From a virus: a DNA stretch of 64,000 nt. The notes under the pieces were generated by a model. The model saw nothing but the letters and a program-made list of their open reading frames with translations, was not told the origin of the DNA and did no database searches. Shown here piece by piece: positions 2,306 through 24,033 of the stretch. Numbering within the stretch: position 1 is the first letter of the stretch; every line of letters begins with the position of its first letter. A program made the position numbers and the translations under genes. The stretch is taken from positions 1 to 64,000 of the IMG/VR virus record IMGVR_UViG_3300020477_001447; one strand, given 5' to 3'.

Positions 2306-3430
2306 GTGAAAAAAGAACTAGAAATTTGGAAAAAGTTTTTAGAAGAGTCAACCGGGTCTGAATCTAATCTTTCTGAAAAGAAGAAGAAGAAAAAGAAAAA
2401 AGGCAAGAAGGACGCTTGTTACCACAAGGTTCGTTCTCGCTATAAGGTTTGGCCTTCTGCATATGCTTCTGGTGCTCTCGTAAAATGCCGTAAGGTGGGA
2501 GCTAAAAACTGGGGTAATAAGAGTAAAAAGAACGAACAAATTAACCTTTTTGAAGGCGAAGAGGGCCTAGAATCGAAGATCCGGCAAGCACTCATAGACG
2601 AGGGTGGAGCAGCCGGCATGAAGGCACTCAAGGACCATACTGAGGCGTCTGAAAGCGAGATTAAAGATGCTATCAAGAGCATGAAAGACGTAGGTCTGCA
2701 CGAAGATGGCGATTATATCCTTCAAGACGACGATGAAATTGATGTTATAAAAGAAGATCTACGGAAATGGTTCAAAAGAAAAGGAGAAAAAGGTTCCAAA
2801 GGTGGCTGGGTAGACTGTAATGCTCCAGATGGAGATGGAGGCTATAAAGAATGTGCAAGGGGAAAAAGAAAGAAATACCCCGCATGCCGCCCAACAGCTG
2901 CAGCCTGTAAAGATAAGGGCAAAGGCAAATCTTGGGGCAAAAAAGCAAAAAAGAAAAGTGTGAAGGAACAGTCGATGAATATATCTGAAGATAAGCTTAA
3001 AGCTATGATTTTTGAAGAATATCGCAGTTATTTGTATGAAACAACCATTTACCCCTATCTAACAGAAGCCACTCTAGATGATGGAACACCAGTTTGTATC
3101 GCTTGCTTACATGAACTTTTAGATGAAGCTTCCTGTGATTGCCCACATTTAGTTTATGAAGCGGAATATCGAGGTAGAAAAGTTAAGCTCAACAAGCCAA
3201 TGCGCGGAGATGTCAAGAAATTTAAAGTTTATGTCAAGGATCCGAAAACTGGAAACATAAAGAAAGTTAATTTTGGACATGGCGGGACAAGCGCGAAGAA
3301 AAAGGGTGAAAAAACCATGAAGATTCGGAAGAACAACCCTAAAGCTAGAAAAAGTTTTCGGGCCCGACATAATTGCAAAAACCCAGGTCCGAAGACAAAG
3401 GCACGATACTGGTCGTGCAAAAAATGGTAG
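2306..3430 (+). CDS. multi-module basic phage protein (C-terminal DUF6321-like domain), putative head-internal protein
   Basis: Modules DACYHKVRSRYKVWPSAYASG, LRKWF..WVDC, EAEYRGRKVKLNKP...RKSFRARHNC...ARYWSC, recalled from T4-like marine phage proteins. Confidence 0.6.
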   Translation: MKKELEIWKKFLEESTGSESNLSEKKKKKKKKGKKDACYHKVRSRYKVWPSAYASGALVKCRKVGAKNWGNKSKKNEQINLFEGEEGLESKIRQALIDEGGAAGMKALKDHTEASESEIKDAIKSMKDVGLHEDGDYILQDDDEIDVIKEDLRKWFKRKGEKGSKGGWVDCNAPDGDGGYKECARGKRKKYPACRPTAAACKDKGKGKSWGKKAKKKSVKEQSMNISEDKLKAMIFEEYRSYLYETTIYPYLTEATLDDGTPVCIACLHELLDEASCDCPHLVYEAEYRGRKVKLNKPMRGDVKKFKVYVKDPKTGNIKKVNFGHGGTSAKKKGEKTMKIRKNNPKARKSFRARHNCKNPGPKTKARYWSCKKW

Positions 3431-3439
3431 GAAATTAAT

Positions 3440-4063
3440 ATGAAGATTATAATGGAAAATTGGAAGAGGTTCTTAAATGAAGAGCAACTTGATCCTAAGT
3501 TAGACAATGAGATTAAGAATAATGTTTTGAAATCTGGAGGGTTCAAGTTGAAAACCCGCATTCAGATGGCAACCAGCGTCCCACAGGGCAAAGATATGTA
3601 TTCTAAAATTTTAGCCGCCTTGCAACAGGGTGCCTACGGAGAGCCCGGTAAAAAGAAAGCCGAAGAGATCGCAGCATTTGAACTTGGACTAGTACCAGCC
3701 GAGGGAGAGTGGACTGCCCCCGAGGGGAATGCTGGGCCACAGGTGGAAGGAAAGCCGGCGAACAAAGAATATTATCGCATGCATATCATGCCATCTTATG
3801 AGGCGTTCCAAGATCTTGGCAGTGACCCGCTTAAGTTTGGGGATTATATTAAAAATCGATTTAAGAATGAATCAGCACCATATATTCAGTTCACAAACGA
3901 GGTGAGAAAGTTGCGTGAGTTTGGACTTGAAGGAGAGGAGAACGCCGGCGTACGATTCAACCGCCTAGGCGCAAACCATCCAGAGCAGAAGCTTCGACAG
4001 CAAGCCCTTAATATGCTTAATGCGCTGCAGAAGTCTGGGTTGAAGACCACAGAGATGCGATAA
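3440..4063 (+). CDS. hypothetical protein with MKIIMENWKRFLNEE leader
   Basis: 207 aa ORF; leader shared with neighbours. Confidence 0.65.
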   Translation: MKIIMENWKRFLNEEQLDPKLDNEIKNNVLKSGGFKLKTRIQMATSVPQGKDMYSKILAALQQGAYGEPGKKKAEEIAAFELGLVPAEGEWTAPEGNAGPQVEGKPANKEYYRMHIMPSYEAFQDLGSDPLKFGDYIKNRFKNESAPYIQFTNEVRKLREFGLEGEENAGVRFNRLGANHPEQKLRQQALNMLNALQKSGLKTTEMR

Positions 4064-4515
4064 TGAAACTCCTACTTGAAAATTGGCGAAAATTTTTAAC
4101 AGAAGTGAAGAAGCTTGTTTGCCCACCGGCAACACAAGATCTTGAATTAAATACAGAAAATAGAAATTCTGCAATTCAAGCTGAACATATTCAATATGGT
4201 CCGTTAAACTTATCGGACGAAGAGTATTGGGAAGGTGCTGCAAAGCACTGGAATACTAAACCAGAGGTAGCTAAAAAGTCTCGTTGTGGCAATTGTGTTG
4301 CATTTGACATATCACCAAGGATGCTAGAATGTTTACCTGGGCCCATATCTGAACCTATTGAGGATAAAGAGGGGCGCCTAGGTTATTGTTGGATGCATCA
4401 CTTCAAGTGTCATAGCGCGCGCTCATGTTACACCTGGGCCGGCGGTGGGCCAATTTCTGTCGATAGCATTTCAGAGGAGTGGCAAAACAAAAACAAATTC
4501 CCAGAAGAGGAATAA
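4063..4515 (+). CDS. Cys/His-rich phage protein with MKLLLENWRKFLTE leader
   Basis: CPPATQD..N..NR..AI...YGP, CGNC, C..HHFKC....C motifs; TAATG coupling to upstream gene. Confidence 0.65.
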   Translation: MKLLLENWRKFLTEVKKLVCPPATQDLELNTENRNSAIQAEHIQYGPLNLSDEEYWEGAAKHWNTKPEVAKKSRCGNCVAFDISPRMLECLPGPISEPIEDKEGRLGYCWMHHFKCHSARSCYTWAGGGPISVDSISEEWQNKNKFPEEE

Positions 4516-4750: not shown

Positions 4751-5179
4751 ATGCTATTAGATTTGTTTTTTCTTGCACTAGGACATGTTTCTGGGGCATT
4801 TATTCTTTATTTAAATCATCGTTTTGTTTTTCATGGCCGGTTGGGAAAAATCTTTTTTCTTAAACCCGGAAGGCTGCTTCATGCTAGGCACCATGCTCAC
4901 GCTTATGATAGACGAAGAAACAACTATATAAAAGCACCATTGTGGGGAGCATTAGCAATAAGTTCTTTAATCTTATTATCTGGTCTTGCTATCCACTGGT
5001 TTTTTGCTTTAGGCTTACTTACTTTCTCAATGCTCTATTCTCGACGCCATGAAGCCATTCACAATAGGGATAATTATTCTGAATTTTACCATCATCACAA
5101 GATACACCATGAAAACCCAAAAGTGAATTTCTCAGGTATATACCCGACTATCGATAAAATATTTGGCACAAGTAAGTAA
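4751..5179 (+). CDS. fatty acid hydroxylase/sterol desaturase-family membrane protein
   Basis: His boxes HRFVFH, HARHH, HEAIH, HHKIHH; TM segments; C-terminal NF.....D.IFGT. Confidence 0.75.
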   Translation: MLLDLFFLALGHVSGAFILYLNHRFVFHGRLGKIFFLKPGRLLHARHHAHAYDRRRNNYIKAPLWGALAISSLILLSGLAIHWFFALGLLTFSMLYSRRHEAIHNRDNYSEFYHHHKIHHENPKVNFSGIYPTIDKIFGTSK

Positions 5180-5244
5180 TTTTTCTTAAGTTTTGGTCTG
5201 AAAAACACTAATTATAGTGTTGCACAATTATAGGGGCTAAAACT

Positions 5245-5919
5245 GTGAAAGTTACAATCAATAAAGCAGATCAATTAATCAACGAACTAGGTCCAGCCGA
5301 ACCAGTACGAGATCCGCGCCCGTCGACAGACGAAGAAGGCTTCTTAAGCGCTCAAGAAGAGGATGCTTTAGAGAGAGAAAATGAAGAAATCATTGCTAAA
5401 GCTGATCTAGTAGTACAAGAACTTACTGAAGACGAAGGGTACGAAAGCGTTGCGGCCTTTTTACAAGATTATAAGGCCGACTCCCCAGAAGAGTTTATGA
5501 GAATGCAGCGTGAAGCTCTGGGCCCGTTTGAGTTTCATGAGAGATATTATATTGACGATTACATTTACTTGGAAGAAACAATTAATATTTCGCACACACA
5601 ATTAAATGATATTATTCAAGAAGAAATAAAAGAAGCAACAAAGTTTTCTCCGGAAAAGGCAGTGTATACCACAGATGACGGTGAGAAGAAAGATACTCGG
5701 CGCGTACACCAAAGCCGGCTTACAAACATAAGAAGAGAAGACTTATCAAATCAGATTAAGCAAAGAAGAATGGAAAGACAAAGATTAAAAGAAGAAGCCC
5801 TAGCTGATATTCAAGATTTGGCTTCCCGCATGCGCGGCGACATTGAAAAGTTAGCCAAAGAAGCAGGAATAACTCCTGAAGCGCTTCTTGCTCTTATTGG
5901 CAAAGAATTAACACAATAA
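5245..5919 (+). CDS. acidic hypothetical protein
   Basis: 224 aa ORF; internal leader-like segment INISHTQLNDIIQEEI. Confidence 0.6.
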   Translation: MKVTINKADQLINELGPAEPVRDPRPSTDEEGFLSAQEEDALERENEEIIAKADLVVQELTEDEGYESVAAFLQDYKADSPEEFMRMQREALGPFEFHERYYIDDYIYLEETINISHTQLNDIIQEEIKEATKFSPEKAVYTTDDGEKKDTRRVHQSRLTNIRREDLSNQIKQRRMERQRLKEEALADIQDLASRMRGDIEKLAKEAGITPEALLALIGKELTQ

Positions 5920-5933
5920 AAAGGATTTATAAG

Positions 5934-6074
5934 ATGAGAGAATTACTACAAGACGTATTAGAATTATCAAAGCGATTAGTTTTACTTAAGCAGCCTAGAG
6001 AAGCTTACGTTGTATTAGCTGCAACTGGACTTTCCGGTTTTATCGCAGGGCTTATTGCAGCTGCCAGCCTATAG
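5934..6074 (+). CDS. small membrane protein (46 aa)
   Basis: Manual translation MRELLQDVLELSKRLVLLKQPREAYVVLAATGLSGFIAGLIAAASL*; AAGGA upstream; fills the intergenic gap. Confidence 0.55.
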   Translation: MRELLQDVLELSKRLVLLKQPREAYVVLAATGLSGFIAGLIAAASL

Positions 6075-6084
6075 GAACAATATC

Positions 6085-6471
6085 ATGAAAATCACCAAAC
6101 AAAGACTAAAAGAGATTATCAAGGAAGAACTCAGCGAAATGGATCTTCCCACATATAAGGGTGATCCCTTCGGTGAGTACGACCTAGAAGCAGAGAACAA
6201 GAAGGGCCGGCAAGAGGAGCTTGCTAATTATCTGTTAAAAATGTATCAGGATCTCTCCGAAACCGGAGATGTCATGACGATCAGAGAGATTATTCAGGAT
6301 AACTTTAACTCAGCTCTTAAAGACGCAGAGGACGCGTTCTTAGGTGATGACGACGAAGTGAGTGATGAAGATGCTCTTGTTCTTAAAGGCCCGAAGTATG
6401 ATCCACTCGGCGATTCTTTGGCCGCACGACGCTTGCGAGCAATTGCACGCCGAAAAGACGGAGACAAATAA
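6085..6471 (+). CDS. MKITKQRLKEIIKEE-leader protein 1
   Basis: ATG 6085 with AGGA upstream; leader matches the next three genes. Confidence 0.75.
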   Translation: MKITKQRLKEIIKEELSEMDLPTYKGDPFGEYDLEAENKKGRQEELANYLLKMYQDLSETGDVMTIREIIQDNFNSALKDAEDAFLGDDDEVSDEDALVLKGPKYDPLGDSLAARRLRAIARRKDGDK

Positions 6472-6752
6472 TGAAAATTACAAAGCAAAGACTAAAAGAG
6501 ATTATCAAGGAAGAGCTTTCGAACGTTCTCTCCGAAATGAAGGAAAATGACTATCATGATGACTATCATGCTGTTCGCTTGAGGCTACAAGTAGAATATG
6601 GTGTTGATGATGCCTCGATGGAACTAATAAAGGCTGTCTATAAGATTTGGCCAGATTTTGCAACAGAAGCAGTAGAGGTCCCACACAAGATAGACCAGGC
6701 TATTAAGATGGCCATCCGAGAAACCGAAGCGTCGGGAAGGCTGGTAAAGTGA
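6471..6752 (+). CDS. MKITKQRLKEIIKEE-leader protein 2
   Basis: TAATG coupled; 93 aa. Confidence 0.75.
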   Translation: MKITKQRLKEIIKEELSNVLSEMKENDYHDDYHAVRLRLQVEYGVDDASMELIKAVYKIWPDFATEAVEVPHKIDQAIKMAIRETEASGRLVK

Positions 6753-6985
6753 AAATCACCAAACAAAGACTTAAAGAGATTATCAAGGAAGAGCTTCTGG
6801 AACGTCTGGGTGCGCGCGACAGAGATAAATTGGTATCCCGAATAAAAAGGCTTCTTTTGCATTCCACTATTGATGAGGAAGGGTTTGCAGCTCTAACGAG
6901 ACTGGTTCACAACCTAGAAAAGCAATATCCTATACCTGAAAGAAGGCCCAGGCGAGGCGAAGTTCAGTTTTTTGAGGAAGAATAA
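6749..6985 (+). CDS. MKITKQRLKEIIKEE-leader protein 3
   Basis: GTGA overlap; 78 aa. Confidence 0.75.
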   Translation: MKITKQRLKEIIKEELLERLGARDRDKLVSRIKRLLLHSTIDEEGFAALTRLVHNLEKQYPIPERRPRRGEVQFFEEE

Positions 6986-7416
6986 TGAAAATCACCAAAC
7001 AAAGACTAAAAGAGATTATCAAGGAAGAGTTTCTAAGGGGGTATCTTGAAAATCTAACCGAAGCGCAGCACAAAGAGCTGCCGGCAAAAGTACATGCTAA
7101 AGCGAAAATGCTACAGTCAGAAGAAGGTTATGAAAAAGATCAAGCATATGCAATTGCCATTAGCAAGCTTGGATTAGAACAAGAGGGTAGGTTGGGAGGC
7201 TTTAGAGTAGAAAGAGAGCACCTCATTCGTGCCGGATTACCAGCTAATCTAGTCAATAAAGGGTTTTTTGATCTTCTACAGAACAATCTTCAGCTCGTCA
7301 GTGCTGACCGGGCGATGCGGGCTATTCAAGCCGCGCTGCGGGATCCCAACGGTCGGAAAGCTGCGATGAGCGGTTCTGCGAATACTTTATTACAATTAGT
7401 AAAGGCTAAGTTATAA
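6985..7416 (+). CDS. MKITKQRLKEIIKEE-leader protein 4
   Basis: TAATG coupled; contains DQAYAIAIS motif. Confidence 0.75.
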   Translation: MKITKQRLKEIIKEEFLRGYLENLTEAQHKELPAKVHAKAKMLQSEEGYEKDQAYAIAISKLGLEQEGRLGGFRVEREHLIRAGLPANLVNKGFFDLLQNNLQLVSADRAMRAIQAALRDPNGRKAAMSGSANTLLQLVKAKL

Positions 7417-7420
7417 TATT

Positions 7421-7906
7421 ATGAAATACTCCATGTCAAAGTTGAGAGCTATAGTTAAAGAAGAACTCTTCTATAGAGAGTTTCATCGAAAAACTGAAGA
7501 ATTAACAGAAGCTTCTGAAGAAGAGACTGTCCGTCAAGATACTTTGGCCGTTCACAAACAAAAGCGCGCAGAGAAGGCGGCGAAGCAACATGCAGCTGAC
7601 CGAAAGGTTAAGGCTCAAAAGTTTGCAACAAAAAGCGCAAAATTTGATGCGGAACAAAAAGAAATCAAAAATTCAGGTAAATGGTGGCTAGCAGGTCTAT
7701 CTAGATCCATTTATATTCCCAACAGCATTGACCGTGATCGAATAAAGGATTGGTTAGTATTTTATGCCGGGGACTATATACCTAGTACAGATTTGAATGA
7801 TATATTTTATGTTTACGAGCCAGACCCTGTAGACCTTATCAATCCAGTGTTTAGATGGATCCCCGGGGAAGAAAAAATGTTAGATGTACCGAGCTTAAAG
7901 GATTAA
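7421..7906 (+). CDS. hypothetical protein with divergent leader MKYSMSKLRAIVKEEL
   Basis: 161 aa ORF. Confidence 0.65.
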   Translation: MKYSMSKLRAIVKEELFYREFHRKTEELTEASEEETVRQDTLAVHKQKRAEKAAKQHAADRKVKAQKFATKSAKFDAEQKEIKNSGKWWLAGLSRSIYIPNSIDRDRIKDWLVFYAGDYIPSTDLNDIFYVYEPDPVDLINPVFRWIPGEEKMLDVPSLKD

Positions 7907-7908
7907 AA

Positions 7909-8376
7909 ATGAAAACTACAAAAGCAAGATTATTACAATTAATTAAAGAAGAACTTGAAGTTATTTTAACAGATGACGAAGCTGTTGAATTATTCGGTGA
8001 TGAAATTAAAGAACAAATTAATGAATTTAACGGCGGAATTATGAGCGCCGATGATGTTCCTTTTGTACCACTTCGTCAGTCCCCACGGGGTGATTTAGAA
8101 GACGAGCGTGTACCAGCAGATGATCTTTATGATGAGGTCTTTGCTGCTAGACAAGCCGTAGACAACGCTGTGCGCCTCTTAGACAACCCAGAATACGATG
8201 CGGTATATGAGATGGTTCAGCAAGCATTCAACTGCCTAGGAAACGCCATGAACGCCCTTATTGAGCACGGAGCCAATCCCCCACAAGATAAAAGAACAGT
8301 AGCTCAAGCTCCTGGGTCTAAGGAAGACTCTGAGATGCGAAAACTTACCTACATTGGAGAAGACGAACAAAAATAA
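7909..8376 (+). CDS. hypothetical protein with divergent leader MKTTKARLLQLIKEEL
   Basis: ATG 7909 follows the upstream stop and AAGGA; preferred over 7855. Confidence 0.65.
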   Translation: MKTTKARLLQLIKEELEVILTDDEAVELFGDEIKEQINEFNGGIMSADDVPFVPLRQSPRGDLEDERVPADDLYDEVFAARQAVDNAVRLLDNPEYDAVYEMVQQAFNCLGNAMNALIEHGANPPQDKRTVAQAPGSKEDSEMRKLTYIGEDEQK

Positions 8377-8407
8377 TTTACTTTTTTGTTCTAATTCGTT
8401 TTAGCCA

Positions 8408-9565: not shown

Positions 9566-10673
9566 AGTAATTAACAATTCTACTGCAAATTTATACCACT
9601 TAGAGCAGTTTGTTGATCATTTTTTTCCCTATTCCCAAGAAAGGCTTAAATTTGATCAGCCAGTGACAATATATTTGCAATCTGACGAAGAAAATGCGCA
9701 AAAAATGCTTGGAAAAACAGCATATTACGACCCACAAGACCTATCTTTGACTCTTTTTGTTGATAATCGCCACCCAAAGGACATTTTACGCTCTTTGTCA
9801 CATGAATTGGTACATCATGCACAAAATTGTCGGGGTGAATTCGGAGGCTGTGACGCTCCGGGGTGGAACCAAGCATGCGTTAAGGACACCGGCCCGGGAT
9901 ATGCTCAAAAAGACCCTCACATGCGAAATATGGAGCTAGAGGCGTATACTAAAGGAAATATTATCTTTAGAGACTTTGAAGACCTAATTAAGTTAGGCAA
10001 AATTAATATAAAAATTGATTTTAATGAAGGAGATGAACAAATGTCGCTCAAAGAGTGGAAAAATAACGAAATTAACAGTTTACTGCTAGAAAAGTGGGGA
10101 CTTACAAAAGAAAAGCGATTCGCTAACGACCCAAAGCTCGATAATGATGGAGACGGGGTACCAAAGTGGGCTGATAAAGACGATAACGACCCTAAAGTTA
10201 AAAAAGAGGGTAATCTTGACGAAGTTGAACATGATTGTGCAAAGCACGTTCGCATGAAAGAAAGTGGCGAAGAAGGTTATGTAGTAGATCATAGTCTCAC
10301 TGAAGATGGCACCGTTGAGCGATACACTGTCAACTTTGATGGCAATGTTGTAGAAGATATCAATGTTGACGATCTTACTGTTTTAGAATCTCGCCATCAC
10401 AACCACCGTGACAGACGATATATGGGTGAGACTGAAGAGCCAGATCTTGATGAAGGACATGGAATGCACGGAACTGACAAGAAAGAGGATGAAGAAGATA
10501 AAAAGAAAAAAGCTTCACCTCAACAGCCAGCAACCATGCATCGAGCAAGGCCAACTCCTCGTAGAGCGCGCCAGAAGGGGCCATCCGTTCGAGGAATGCG
10601 CTTTGAAGAAAGTAAAATTGATGAATTAGTTAACAGAATTGTTGAAAAATTACAAAACACGGAGGAAAACTAA
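9555..10673 (+). CDS. putative zinc metallopeptidase (HExxH), multi-module
   Basis: RHPKDILRSLSHELVHHAQ...E.EAY; DNDGDGVPKWADKDDNDP acidic repeat. Confidence 0.65.
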   Translation: MKHKVINNSTANLYHLEQFVDHFFPYSQERLKFDQPVTIYLQSDEENAQKMLGKTAYYDPQDLSLTLFVDNRHPKDILRSLSHELVHHAQNCRGEFGGCDAPGWNQACVKDTGPGYAQKDPHMRNMELEAYTKGNIIFRDFEDLIKLGKINIKIDFNEGDEQMSLKEWKNNEINSLLLEKWGLTKEKRFANDPKLDNDGDGVPKWADKDDNDPKVKKEGNLDEVEHDCAKHVRMKESGEEGYVVDHSLTEDGTVERYTVNFDGNVVEDINVDDLTVLESRHHNHRDRRYMGETEEPDLDEGHGMHGTDKKEDEEDKKKKASPQQPATMHRARPTPRRARQKGPSVRGMRFEESKIDELVNRIVEKLQNTEEN

Positions 10674-10674
10674 A

Positions 10675-10980
10675 ATGACATCACCTAGAAAAAAGAAATT
10701 ATGGCGCCACCAGCAAATGTTAAAGGCCCAACAAGCTGCAGCTGCCACAGCAGACGCTGCCGCTGCAACCGCTGATACAGCGACTGCAACTGCAACTGCA
10801 GAAGCAACTGCCACTACCGCTGCAACTACAGAAACAGCCGATAATGCTGCTGCAGCTGCTGCAGTTACAGAGACTGCTTCTGTTGCCGCTAACGCTACAG
10901 CGACAACTACGTCTACTAGCTCTACCGCTAAAAGAGCAACAAAAAAGGCCACAAAGACAACCACAAAAACAGCCCAATAG
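10675..10980 (+). CDS. Ala/Thr-rich low-complexity protein with basic termini
   Basis: GGAGG at 10661 then ATG 10675; AAAATADAAAATADTATATATA... core. Confidence 0.6.
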   Translation: MTSPRKKKLWRHQQMLKAQQAAAATADAAAATADTATATATAEATATTAATTETADNAAAAAAVTETASVAANATATTTSTSSTAKRATKKATKTTTKTAQ

Positions 10981-22038: not shown

Positions 22039-24033
22039 ATGGCTTTTGAATTAGGACAAGTAGTTCAGGGACGGCACCTCGTTGCAGGTGACCTGTCCGG
22101 TGAATTACAGGTATCCGCCGTTGGTGGACATAGCGGTGACCTCGACGCCGTACTCGCTGGATTAAACAGTGATGTAGAAGCCGAGGAAGCAGCCCGATTG
22201 GCAGGAGATCAGCAGTTAGCTGCTGCTCACTCTGCTCTTTCTGGTGGTGTGATCGCAGACAAATATGCAATCAACACAAGAGTTACTGCAGAAGAAGGTG
22301 CTCGCGCAGCTGCTGATGCATCTATTGAGGCTCGCCTCGGTGTTGAAGAAGCAGCTGCTTCGGGCTCCGCTGCGTCTTTGACAACTCGTGTTGGCGCAGC
22401 AGAGAACGCGATGGCTTCCGCCGTCAGCTCTTTGGTAACTGACATCGAAGACCTTGACGAAATGGCAGGTGATGCTATAGCTTCTATCGACGCCGGATTC
22501 GGCGTCTACGTGGGTGATCAAGCTAACTTGAACGGCTCCCAAGACGCACGAATTGGTGCATTGGAAGTATTGCGTGGACAGAAGGATGTTTCCCTCCAGA
22601 CTCGCCTTGCTGCTGAAGAAACCAACCGAGAAGCTAACCGAGCTTCTTTAACAACACGGATTGGTCAAGAAGAAGGCATTCGTGCTAACCAGACAAGTTC
22701 TTTACAGACTCGTTTGGGTCTTGCCGAAGCACAAGCAAACACTGATCGTGGCGACCGAATGGACGCTGTATCCTCTATCGATGTTCGATGGGGTGAAGAC
22801 GATCTTGCTGACGCATCTCTTGAGTCTCGCTTAGCAGCTGAAGAGACAGGACGTTCTGCAGGCCAGGGTTCTTTGGACACTCGCGTTGCAGCAGCTGAAG
22901 CACAAGCAAACACTGATCGTGGCAACCGAATGGATGCCGTATCCTCTATCGATGTTCGATGGGGTGAAGATGATCTTGCTGATGCGTCTCTTGAAGCTCG
23001 TGTTGGTGTTGAAGAAGCAGCTCGTGCAGCTGACGTTGGATCTCTCGAAACTCGTCTTGGTGTTGAAGAGGCTGCTCTTGCAGCTGAAATCGCAGCAACA
23101 GACGCTGAGGTCACTGCTCTCGGTAACCAGACACTTTCTTTAAGTGTACGGGCACTTGCTGAAGAGACTAATCGTGCAGCTGACATTGCATCTGTTGATG
23201 CATACAACGCTGCATTTAAGACTAGCTACGATGCTGATATTGCGTCTATCGACACATACAACTCTGGATTTAAGACCGCATATGATGCTGATCTTCTTTC
23301 CGTTGATAACCGTGTCGCCGCTGACGAAGCAGCTCTTGCAGCTGAGATCGCAGCAACAAACGCTGATGTATCTTCTATCGATCTTCGCGTTGCAGGTGAA
23401 GAGTCTACCCGAGCGGGTGCAGACTCTTCCTTGACAACTCGTCTCGGTGATGAAGAAGCAGCACGCGCAGCTGACATTGCATCTGTTGATGCTAAGTCTG
23501 CCGCCGACAAGACGGCTTGGACCGCAGGGTTCGCCTCTTCCGACACTCGATTGGGTGCTGAAGAAAATGCGCGCGCAGCAGATTCTGCTTCTTTGGCAAC
23601 AAAGATTGATGCAGACATTGCAGCGTTAATTGATGCAGCTCCAGCACAGCTTGACACACTCAAGGAAATCGCTGATTCCCTCAACTCCGACGCAAGTGCG
23701 TTTAACACCCTTAAGGGTCTTATCGACGCTGCAGCTGTTGTTGAGGACGGCGTTAAGGTATCTACCGATGCCCGAATGACTGCGGAGGAAGGCGCTCGCG
23801 CCGCCGCAGACAGTTCTCTTGAGACCCGTCTTGCAGCAGCAGAGGCTGAAGAAGCAGCTGATATGATCAGCTCCGACGCACGAGTTCTTGCAGTAGAAAA
23901 CACTGGTGTTCAGAAGGTTGCCTTCGATGACGCTGGTGATGTATACAGCATGAGCTTCGGCGCAGGTAAGCCAATCATGGAGATGTCCATCGAAGGTGGT
24001 CAGATCAAGGTTGAGTTCAAGGTTGCTAGCTAA
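22039..24033 (+). CDS. Ala-rich coiled-coil fibre-like virion protein
   Basis: Repeated EExARAAADxSLxTRL units; IDAAPAQLDTLKEIADSL motif typical of phage fibres; AGGAG RBS; higher GC than flanks. Confidence 0.7.
   Translation: MAFELGQVVQGRHLVAGDLSGELQVSAVGGHSGDLDAVLAGLNSDVEAEEAARLAGDQQLAAAHSALSGGVIADKYAINTRVTAEEGARAAADASIEARLGVEEAAASGSAASLTTRVGAAENAMASAVSSLVTDIEDLDEMAGDAIASIDAGFGVYVGDQANLNGSQDARIGALEVLRGQKDVSLQTRLAAEETNREANRASLTTRIGQEEGIRANQTSSLQTRLGLAEAQANTDRGDRMDAVSSIDVRWGEDDLADASLESRLAAEETGRSAGQGSLDTRVAAAEAQANTDRGNRMDAVSSIDVRWGEDDLADASLEARVGVEEAARAADVGSLETRLGVEEAALAAEIAATDAEVTALGNQTLSLSVRALAEETNRAADIASVDAYNAAFKTSYDADIASIDTYNSGFKTAYDADLLSVDNRVAADEAALAAEIAATNADVSSIDLRVAGEESTRAGADSSLTTRLGDEEAARAADIASVDAKSAADKTAWTAGFASSDTRLGAEENARAADSASLATKIDADIAALIDAAPAQLDTLKEIADSLNSDASAFNTLKGLIDAAAVVEDGVKVSTDARMTAEEGARAAADSSLETRLAAAEAEEAADMISSDARVLAVENTGVQKVAFDDAGDVYSMSFGAGKPIMEMSIEGGQIKVEFKVAS
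22726..22995 (+). repeat. intragenic direct repeat (~99 bp, period 171 bp)
   Basis: EAQANTDRG(D/N)RMDAVSSIDVRWGEDDLADASLE at 22726 and 22897. Confidence 0.9.

Follow-up and report, generated by a model that had tools for sequence, protein, structure and literature searches.

In bacteriophage T4, a set of diverse proteins enters the head by way of one shared address. IPI, IPII and IPIII, which are internal proteins, and also Alt, begin with a short capsid targeting sequence (CTS) that is removed by gp21; one conserved CTS on diverse internal proteins is established for the T-even phages (PMC3012670). In T4 this sequence is MKTYQEFIAE (PMC8442874). The first ten residues are enough for packaging: positions 4 and 7 serve targeting, positions 8 and 10 matter for processing, and L/I-X-E is the motif after which gp21 cuts (PMC9026906). 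Here we analyse a 64,000-nucleotide stretch of viral DNA (positions 1 to 64,000 of IMG/VR record IMGVR_UViG_3300020477_001447, called the window below), in which six neighbouring genes at 6085-8376 start with a 16-residue leader, or a diverged form of it, and continue into unrelated bodies.

Other known systems resemble parts of this arrangement. In phiKZ-like giant phages (201phi2-1, SPN3US), propeptides of inner-body and ejection proteins are cut by gp21-like proteases after S/A-X-E; the likeness lies in many head-internal proteins being cut after Glu, with several sites per protein possible (PMC9026906). No single shared leader is described in that paper, whereas the genes studied here bear one highly conserved tag on small bodies. 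T4-type phages also have hyperplastic regions, where orphan genes undergo modular shuffling mediated by PeSL elements (Arbiol et al. 2010, PMC2839356; PMC4122927). There, as in our locus, small blocks of orphan genes between core genes differ in close relatives, and short flanking repeats are the candidates for mediating exchange. The PeSL repeat, however, is an intergenic promoter plus a stem-loop (PMC2839356), whereas the repeat here is the first 44-47 nucleotides (nt) of coding sequence; unlike the PeSL case, the genes here are coupled with 1-4-nt overlaps and show no promoter-like or terminator-like excess. Integron cassettes offer an analogy only: they too are unrelated exchangeable genes bounded by a short conserved repeat. 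Unlike an integron, our locus has no integrase and no attC, its repeat is translated and stands at each gene's 5' end, and exchange would presumably proceed by general homologous recombination.

The genes of the array are as follows (lengths in amino acids, aa):

6085-6471, plus strand: cassette 1, an acidic 112-aa body ('family A') behind the leader at 6085-6132 (MKITKQRLKEIIKEEL)
6471-6752, plus strand: cassette 2, leader and 77-aa body
6749-6985, plus strand: cassette 3, GTG start overlapping the preceding stop (GTGA), leader and 62-aa body
6985-7416, plus strand: cassette 4, leader and basic 127-aa body
7421-7906, plus strand: member with diverged leader (MKYSMSKLRAIVKEELFYREFH), the leader-like part from 7433, continuing ELFYREFH
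7909-8376, plus strand: member with a 30-aa extended leader (MKTTKARLLQLIKEELEVILTDDEAVELFG; start MKTTKARLLQLIKEELE)

The first four genes share the start MKITKQRLKEIIKEE (44 nt, 15 aa), and the next residue is usually L, which makes a leader of 16 residues. The 44-nt pattern occurs four times (at 6085, 6471, 6749 and 6985) against none expected from 100 shuffles. Copies 1 and 4 have the same 44 nt throughout, copy 2 differs by three synonymous third-position changes, and copy 3 by a GTG start and one synonymous change. The genes are joined by TAATG at 6469-6473 and 6983-6987 and by GTGA at 6749-6752, and a GGAG-like ribosome-binding site precedes every start within the end of the preceding gene. 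Four tandem, translationally coupled genes with near-identical leader DNA are thus present, just as a first-pass annotation of this DNA by eye had described them. That annotation had also listed divergent versions at 7421 and 7909, and these proved real: a leader profile finds exactly six members on the whole 100.7-kb contig, the four copies and these two, scoring 7909 at E 1e-11 and 7436 only at E 0.02. Longer open reading frames (ORFs) from 6055 and 7855 were rejected as artefacts of upstream start codons; a close relative, L149, begins directly at MKTTK.

The same annotation had called the payloads unrelated, and BLASTP bears this out: the six leader-trimmed bodies of the window have no match to one another at E<1e-3. 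In a wider set, BLAST sorts 58 tagged proteins of 19 contigs into 37 clusters, of which 30 have a single member. Family A has orthologues in contigs L010 and L004. The body of cassette 2 has no relative among 151 compared loci, nor does that of cassette 3 among the compared loci. Cassette 4 has a shorter homologue (74 aa) in L149, the 'FYREFH' N-terminus of the 7421 type stands also beside the arrays of L003, L004, L010, L015 and L149, and the 7909 body is kept at 82% and 61% in two relatives. In AlphaFold 2 (AF2) models of two members the leader is a helix of its own followed by a disordered linker. For cassette 1 the leader helix spans residues 5-18 and the linker 19-33, followed by low-confidence helices; for the 7909 protein, helices are modelled at 5-19 and 23-32, disorder over 30-65, and 70-119 as a helical hairpin.

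The extended leader of 7909 belongs to a sub-family of its own (window 7909-7998; P0179, P0180, P0182), in which 30 residues (…EELEVILTDDEAVELFG) stand on differing bodies; one such body elsewhere is a DUF3008 domain (E 5e-16).

The leader is conserved at the level of its DNA. When the window's first 14 kb was compared with 18 loci of other contigs, the leader of ~47 nt was almost the sole alignable DNA, at 90-100% identity. The protease genes of these leader-sharing phages are saturated at synonymous sites: between contig G000, to which the window belongs, and the related G005 and G002, protein identity is 56-64%, and identical residues use the same codon in 28-30% of cases. The leader has minor codons at fixed places (ATC, ACC, CTA, GAG). 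From codon usage in this genome, two independent copies are expected to agree in 6.2 of 14 codons; agreement in all 14 has a probability of 6e-6. Leader DNA is kept far beyond the needs of the peptide or of codon usage.

Could the repeat act mainly as nucleic acid, as a translation-initiation or operator region or as the target of a site-specific recombinase or a homing endonuclease, with the peptide a by-product? Conservation of 44-47 nt at codon level, minor codons included, exceeds the constraint from the peptide, and the window opens with an HNH endonuclease gene. We consider this reading highly improbable all the same. A second group of contigs has the identical peptide with 8-10 synonymous differences, so the leader peptide itself is under selection; within one contig group the leader DNA appears to be additionally homogenised or exchanged. 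Thousands of variants retain the residue pattern through conservative replacements, internal copies that lack a start are maintained, the 30 nt upstream of the leader are not conserved, and the folding energy of the start region is ordinary when set against synonymous recodings. On the same folding comparison, avoidance of RNA structure was discarded as the cause of the codon conservation.

A close relative of the window's phage, L148/L149, allows the boundaries of change to be located. Its syntenic flanking genes are 70-85% identical to those of the window, but its cassettes differ, so the array is not invariant even among near relatives. In L149 the order is X1, X2, a short 6985-like gene, the FYREFH gene and a 7909-like gene; in the window it is A, 6471, 6749, 6985, FYREFH and 7909. 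DNA homology to L149 covers 5733-6131, ending at the 3' end of leader 1, and starts again from 6985, the first base of leader 4. Since homology stops at 6131 and resumes at 6985, the segment that has been replaced has a leader copy at either boundary. In the comparison with L004 and L010, the homologous stretch takes in the last part of body A together with the leader that follows, and ends right after GAAGAGCTT. Cassette X2 of L149, which is not in the window, is present in L014. The site of the array differs as well. In at least six related contigs, one to five leader cassettes separate the primase gene from a fused Mre11/Rad50-like gene; G000 has no cassette at this junction and carries its array at another place:

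L020:3301-7394 (G000 87,301-91,394): primase and fused Mre11 (Metallophos)/Rad50 (SMC_N)-like 1062-aa gene, directly abutting

These data bear on an ordinary family of tandem paralogues, in which one small ancestral gene was duplicated, the bodies diverged past recognition under diversifying selection and the N-terminus stayed constrained, with no exchange of cassettes. The tandem, translationally coupled layout would follow naturally. The bodies are small, helical and modelled with low confidence, which makes a loss of detectable similarity plausible, and some of them form families across contigs, one such cluster having 15 members. Yet body lengths run from 27 to 252 aa, without pairwise similarity within the window, and old duplications cannot yield near-identical leader DNA in phages whose core genes are synonymously saturated. 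Homology blocks that stop exactly at leader boundaries, patchwork sharing of cassettes among contigs and arrays at differing genome sites, with an empty primase/Mre11-Rad50 junction in G000, also stand against it. We regard simple duplication as improbable. The proposal that the repeat serves as a recombination handle for payload genes fits what we see, namely non-homologous payloads, an array that varies among relatives, breakpoints at leader ends and an excess of leader DNA conservation. Two outcomes that the first-pass annotation had named as refuting it, homologous payloads and an invariant array, were not seen.

What does the peptide do? We lean, with modest confidence, towards a T4-style load-and-cut tag whose copies also delimit the exchange of cassettes. 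The 16-residue leader would be a capsid-targeting propeptide of the T4 kind, used across uncultured marine T4-like phages that form a large clade. The leader is predicted to form a short amphipathic helix on a flexible linker; the helix would dock the attached protein to the core of the assembling prohead, and the gp21-family S77 prohead protease would then cut after I12-x-E14. A mature variable body starting E-L would be left within the head and could exit with the DNA at infection, perhaps to act as an effector. The leader copies may act as short blocks of homology, because the tag is the sole common part and its DNA is near-identical within and between phages; cassettes or runs of cassettes would be replaced, added or fused, giving arrays that differ in content even among close relatives.

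The protease that this reading calls for is encoded on the same contig:

L020:14666-15271 (L020 is part of G000; G000 98,666-99,271): S77 (gp21-type) prohead protease, Pfam PF03420 at E 5.5e-31, 5JBL (T4 gp21) at E 3e-19

Aligned to T4 gp21 (5JBL), it has the His and Ser in DHP and SSRG motifs. Both T4 and this phage therefore encode a gp21-family S77 protease, and in both the leader ends in L/I-x-E and is the sole part shared by the tagged proteins. When the two leaders are aligned at the final Glu, Y4, F7, I8 and E10 of T4 correspond to L8, I11, I12 and E14 here, which places hydrophobic residues at the T4 targeting positions (PMC9026906). Among 245 copies, L8 is conserved in 98%, I11 in 88%, I12 in 89% (V in 11%) and E14 in 100%. 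Position 10, which is E in the window, is Q in 64% of family copies; because E10 is not conserved, I12-x-E14 is the family's only conserved L/I-x-E cut motif. The first-pass annotation had proposed a protein address tag cut at IKE/E, and we infer such a cut from the gp21-family S77 protease and from the fit of I12-x-E14 to the L/I-X-E rule of T4; the tag's part as an address is likewise a conclusion from analogy.

Protease and leader are also found together in other phages. Of 21 leader-bearing contigs, all partial (10-79% complete), 14 encode an S77 protease, which is about what would be expected if each complete genome carried one. Seven contigs have their arrays on the protease's strand, 6-20 kb upstream of it, and in G005 and G012 the gene directly after the protease has a leader-like N-terminus. 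A complex prediction for the S77 protease with a 30-residue leader alignment scored 0.00, which counts neither for nor against binding.

A second leader family stands upstream of the array:

2306-4515, plus strand: second leader family, on three neighbouring genes (2306, 3440, 4063) whose bodies are unrelated

Its pattern is M-K-x-x-x-E-x-W-[KR]-[KR]-F-L-x-E (also …ENW[KR][KR]FLxE). The hydrophobic and Glu positions (3, 8, 11, 12, 14) share the register of leader 1, and W8, F11, L12 and E14 fall on the same four T4 residues. L149 has three leader-2 genes (5129, 5810, 7039), none with a body that matches the window's; between the two, only the 42-51-nt leader aligns, at 78-86%. Leader 2 shows the same turnover as leader 1. 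The protein at 2306-3430 contains a poly-Lys tract from an A-rich run, and for its body there are matches in Flavobacterium phage immuto (40% over 182 aa, at L024 2609-3010) and in PHROGs 727, 3477 and 7595 (function unknown; WPSAYASGALV motif).

Several observations weigh against a capsid-targeting role. Homology between the leader and the T4 CTS is not demonstrable: the likeness amounts to a four-position pattern and an N-terminal MK, in sequences too short for statistics, tblastn with the leader matched nothing in T4-like isolates, and the T4 leader has 10 residues as against 16 here. K2, T4, K5, E15 and L16 are as conserved as the four matching positions, with no mapped counterpart in the T4 CTS. 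T4 IPI-III are highly basic (PMC8442874), whereas 74% of the 58 bodies have an isoelectric point (pI) below 6, with a median of 4.9. The array of G000 lies outside the head module. A T4-type late promoter, TATAAATA, was not enriched in our search, and none was found near the array. Sigma-70-like promoters and terminators are about as frequent as in shuffled sequence. Some tagged proteins end in membrane-spanning segments. Finally, cultured phages that have an S77 protease (Flavobacterium phage immuto, cyanophages, T4) do not have this leader, so its co-occurrence with S77 may mirror one clade only.

Some of these facts would suit a leader that is a docking helix for another partner, such as a chaperone, a machine of the host or a replication or transcription complex of the phage, and that undergoes neither packaging nor cleavage. 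On this view the array would encode early or middle proteins that stay inside the cell and share one interaction module. An amphipathic helix on a linker, as modelled by AF2, is what such a module would look like; many intracellular phage inhibitors are acidic, as most of the bodies are; the G000 array sits among auxiliary genes (UvdE, fatty-acid hydroxylase, HNH) and not among head genes, and the relatives' arrays sit between primase and Mre11/Rad50-like replication genes. The equally conserved residues that lack a CTS counterpart would also be accounted for. Left unexplained are the match to the T4 targeting and processing positions, the terminal L/I-x-E and the same register in a second, different leader; internal copies in multi-module proteins are also more natural as cut sites. 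We consider a docking helix rather unlikely and prefer the load-and-cut tag.

How widespread is the leader? The exact peptide, back-translated, occurs in 18 IMG/VR contigs, and the common variant KITKxQLKQIIKEE in at least 120 viral contigs. Neither pattern has a match in 185,579 prokaryote species genomes, and the leader appears restricted to viruses. Run against 1.84 billion cluster representatives at a cut-off of E<=0.001, a leader profile of 30 columns, made from 55 leaders, matched 7,274 protein clusters (50% identity) in metagenomes; the matches that we looked up are unnamed metagenome proteins. Among 50,697 phage records the leader was not found (tblastn returned noise only), immuto also lacking it, and the array region 5200-8400 had no blastn match there. 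Full-text literature searches with the leader peptide and three core variants found no paper. In 245 copies, residues 1-16 hold 1.7-4 bits each and residues from 17 onward less than 1 bit, the fall at the leader's end being from more than 2 bits.

The leader is not confined to N-termini. Many profile matches have two to four copies per polypeptide, and 43 of 117 internal copies are without a preceding Met; the motif therefore works as a module and not only as an N-terminus. Such copies fit a motif that is read by a protease or a docking site anywhere in a protein. P0001, P0006, P0013, P0020 and P0028 are single polypeptides of 390-660 aa with three or four leader copies; unrelated segments of 80-200 aa separate the leaders, and several copies are Met-less (…ENKITKSQL…). 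On sequence, these proteins look polyprotein-like. P0006 and P0010 have hydrophobic, membrane-like tails at the C-terminal end. Within the window, internal versions had been reported in genes 5245 and 2306. They are visible by eye in both (aa 113-130 in 5245, aa ~233-250 in 2306), but both score below the profile threshold. The first of these genes in detail:

5245-5919, plus strand: two-module protein with an internal leader-like motif (INISHTQLNDIIQEEIKE) at aa 113-130, DNA about 5581-5634

The motif in 5245 is kept in the orthologue upstream of the relative's array, where it is nearer the consensus.

These copies invite a bolder reading, which we hold only as a possibility and on the doubtful side: KITKxxLKxIIKEEL may be a portable 'load-and-release' code, read by the head protease wherever it is present, and at the same time a population-wide crossover site for cassettes, a role for which its DNA would be kept identical across divergent phages. 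The result would be a translated integron-like cargo array for injected proteins. It would cover the packing, across a whole clade of abundant ocean T4-like phages, of thousands of unrelated, mostly acidic proteins together with the multi-module polyproteins.

The bodies themselves gave few clues. The six array proteins and their neighbours have nothing above noise in PHROGs and Pfam. Among the 150 best leader-bearing proteins, 147 have no Pfam match and the other three have four stray weak ones, of which an S_100 match falls on a leader copy. An ESM Atlas search with the 6985 body returned no named relative, and the 7909 model has no Foldseek match in BFVD at E<=0.001. The first-pass annotation had offered the payloads as anti-defence or host-takeover effectors. 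None of our results supports this, no family, fold or atlas match having been found; because no body could be given a function, the anti-defence claim draws on the analogy with T4 alone. An array of precursors for ribosomally synthesised and post-translationally modified peptides was considered and rejected: there are no modifying enzymes nearby, and the bodies are 60-250 aa long and not rich in Cys, Ser or Thr.

To speak of an undescribed system, as the first-pass annotation did, is too strong, since the principle of a conserved CTS is already established for T-even phages (PMC3012670). What is new is a different, longer tag in an uncultured marine clade, and its scale; new too are a tag inside multi-module proteins and a coding leader that itself marks exchange boundaries. 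Unlike T4, these phages can have six or more tagged genes per array, with thousands of body families in metagenomes, and their leader DNA is codon-conserved across divergent phages; unlike the T4 system, this one is known from sequence alone. If the tag loads heads, a simple sequence rule would identify the proteins that many uncultured phages of the ocean, a large group, inject as cargo. That cargo is now pure 'dark matter', and the rule would give a list of candidates for anti-defence and host-takeover screens. Engineers of T4-like capsids could use the leader as a second packaging tag, independent of the first, and it would be a case from nature in which one coding repeat is also a gene-exchange crossover site between divergent phages. 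If the tag has another role, it still ranks with the most widespread peptide motifs that lack an annotation in marine viromes.

G000, whose first 64 kb make up the window, is a viral contig of 100,743 bp rated 56% complete. The contig is about half of a T4-like genome and comes from an uncultured ocean relative of phage T4. Its far end is a T4-type head module, in which genes for the large terminase subunit and a gp20-type portal adjoin that for the Peptidase_S77 prohead protease; the capsid gene falls past the contig end. In the related contig G002 the head module runs on to a scaffold-like gene and a Gp23 capsid protein, whose N-terminal 60 residues precede the part that aligns with mature T4 gp23* and contain three L-x-E motifs. 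Judged by the portal, Microcystis phage Mel-JY01 (41%) is the nearest cultured phage, followed by Flavobacterium phage immuto (38%). A further gene near the protease is conserved:

L020:15274-15729 (G000 99,274-99,729): conserved 134-152-aa gene, homologues in L025, L026 and L027

It lies downstream of the prohead protease, immediately next to it in G000 and G001, and its N-terminus, MKKSE[FL]xKxLKPL[IV]KECIKE…, is leader-like, with I-K-E. Its product may be a prohead core protein with a propeptide of its own.

Other genes lie upstream of the leader-1 array:

2-217: partial HNH endonuclease, auxiliary gene upstream of the arrays
1342-2268: UV-damage endonuclease UvdE (E 6e-63), auxiliary gene upstream of the arrays
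4751-5179: fatty-acid-hydroxylase-family membrane protein, auxiliary gene upstream of the arrays
5934-6074, plus strand: 46-aa ORF with hydrophobic C-terminus, inside the block 5733-6131 (76% with L149)

Two other regions of the window stand out. The ORF at 22039-24033 (664 aa) stands in a 2-kb block with 51% G+C, while the rest of the window has ~38%; it has no Pfam match and a weak PHROG match only, and may be a recent acquisition. The ORF at 10639-10980 is of low complexity and rich in Ala and Thr, with runs of AAATAD and TATATA-like residues, in a stretch where long ORFs are open in several frames on both strands.

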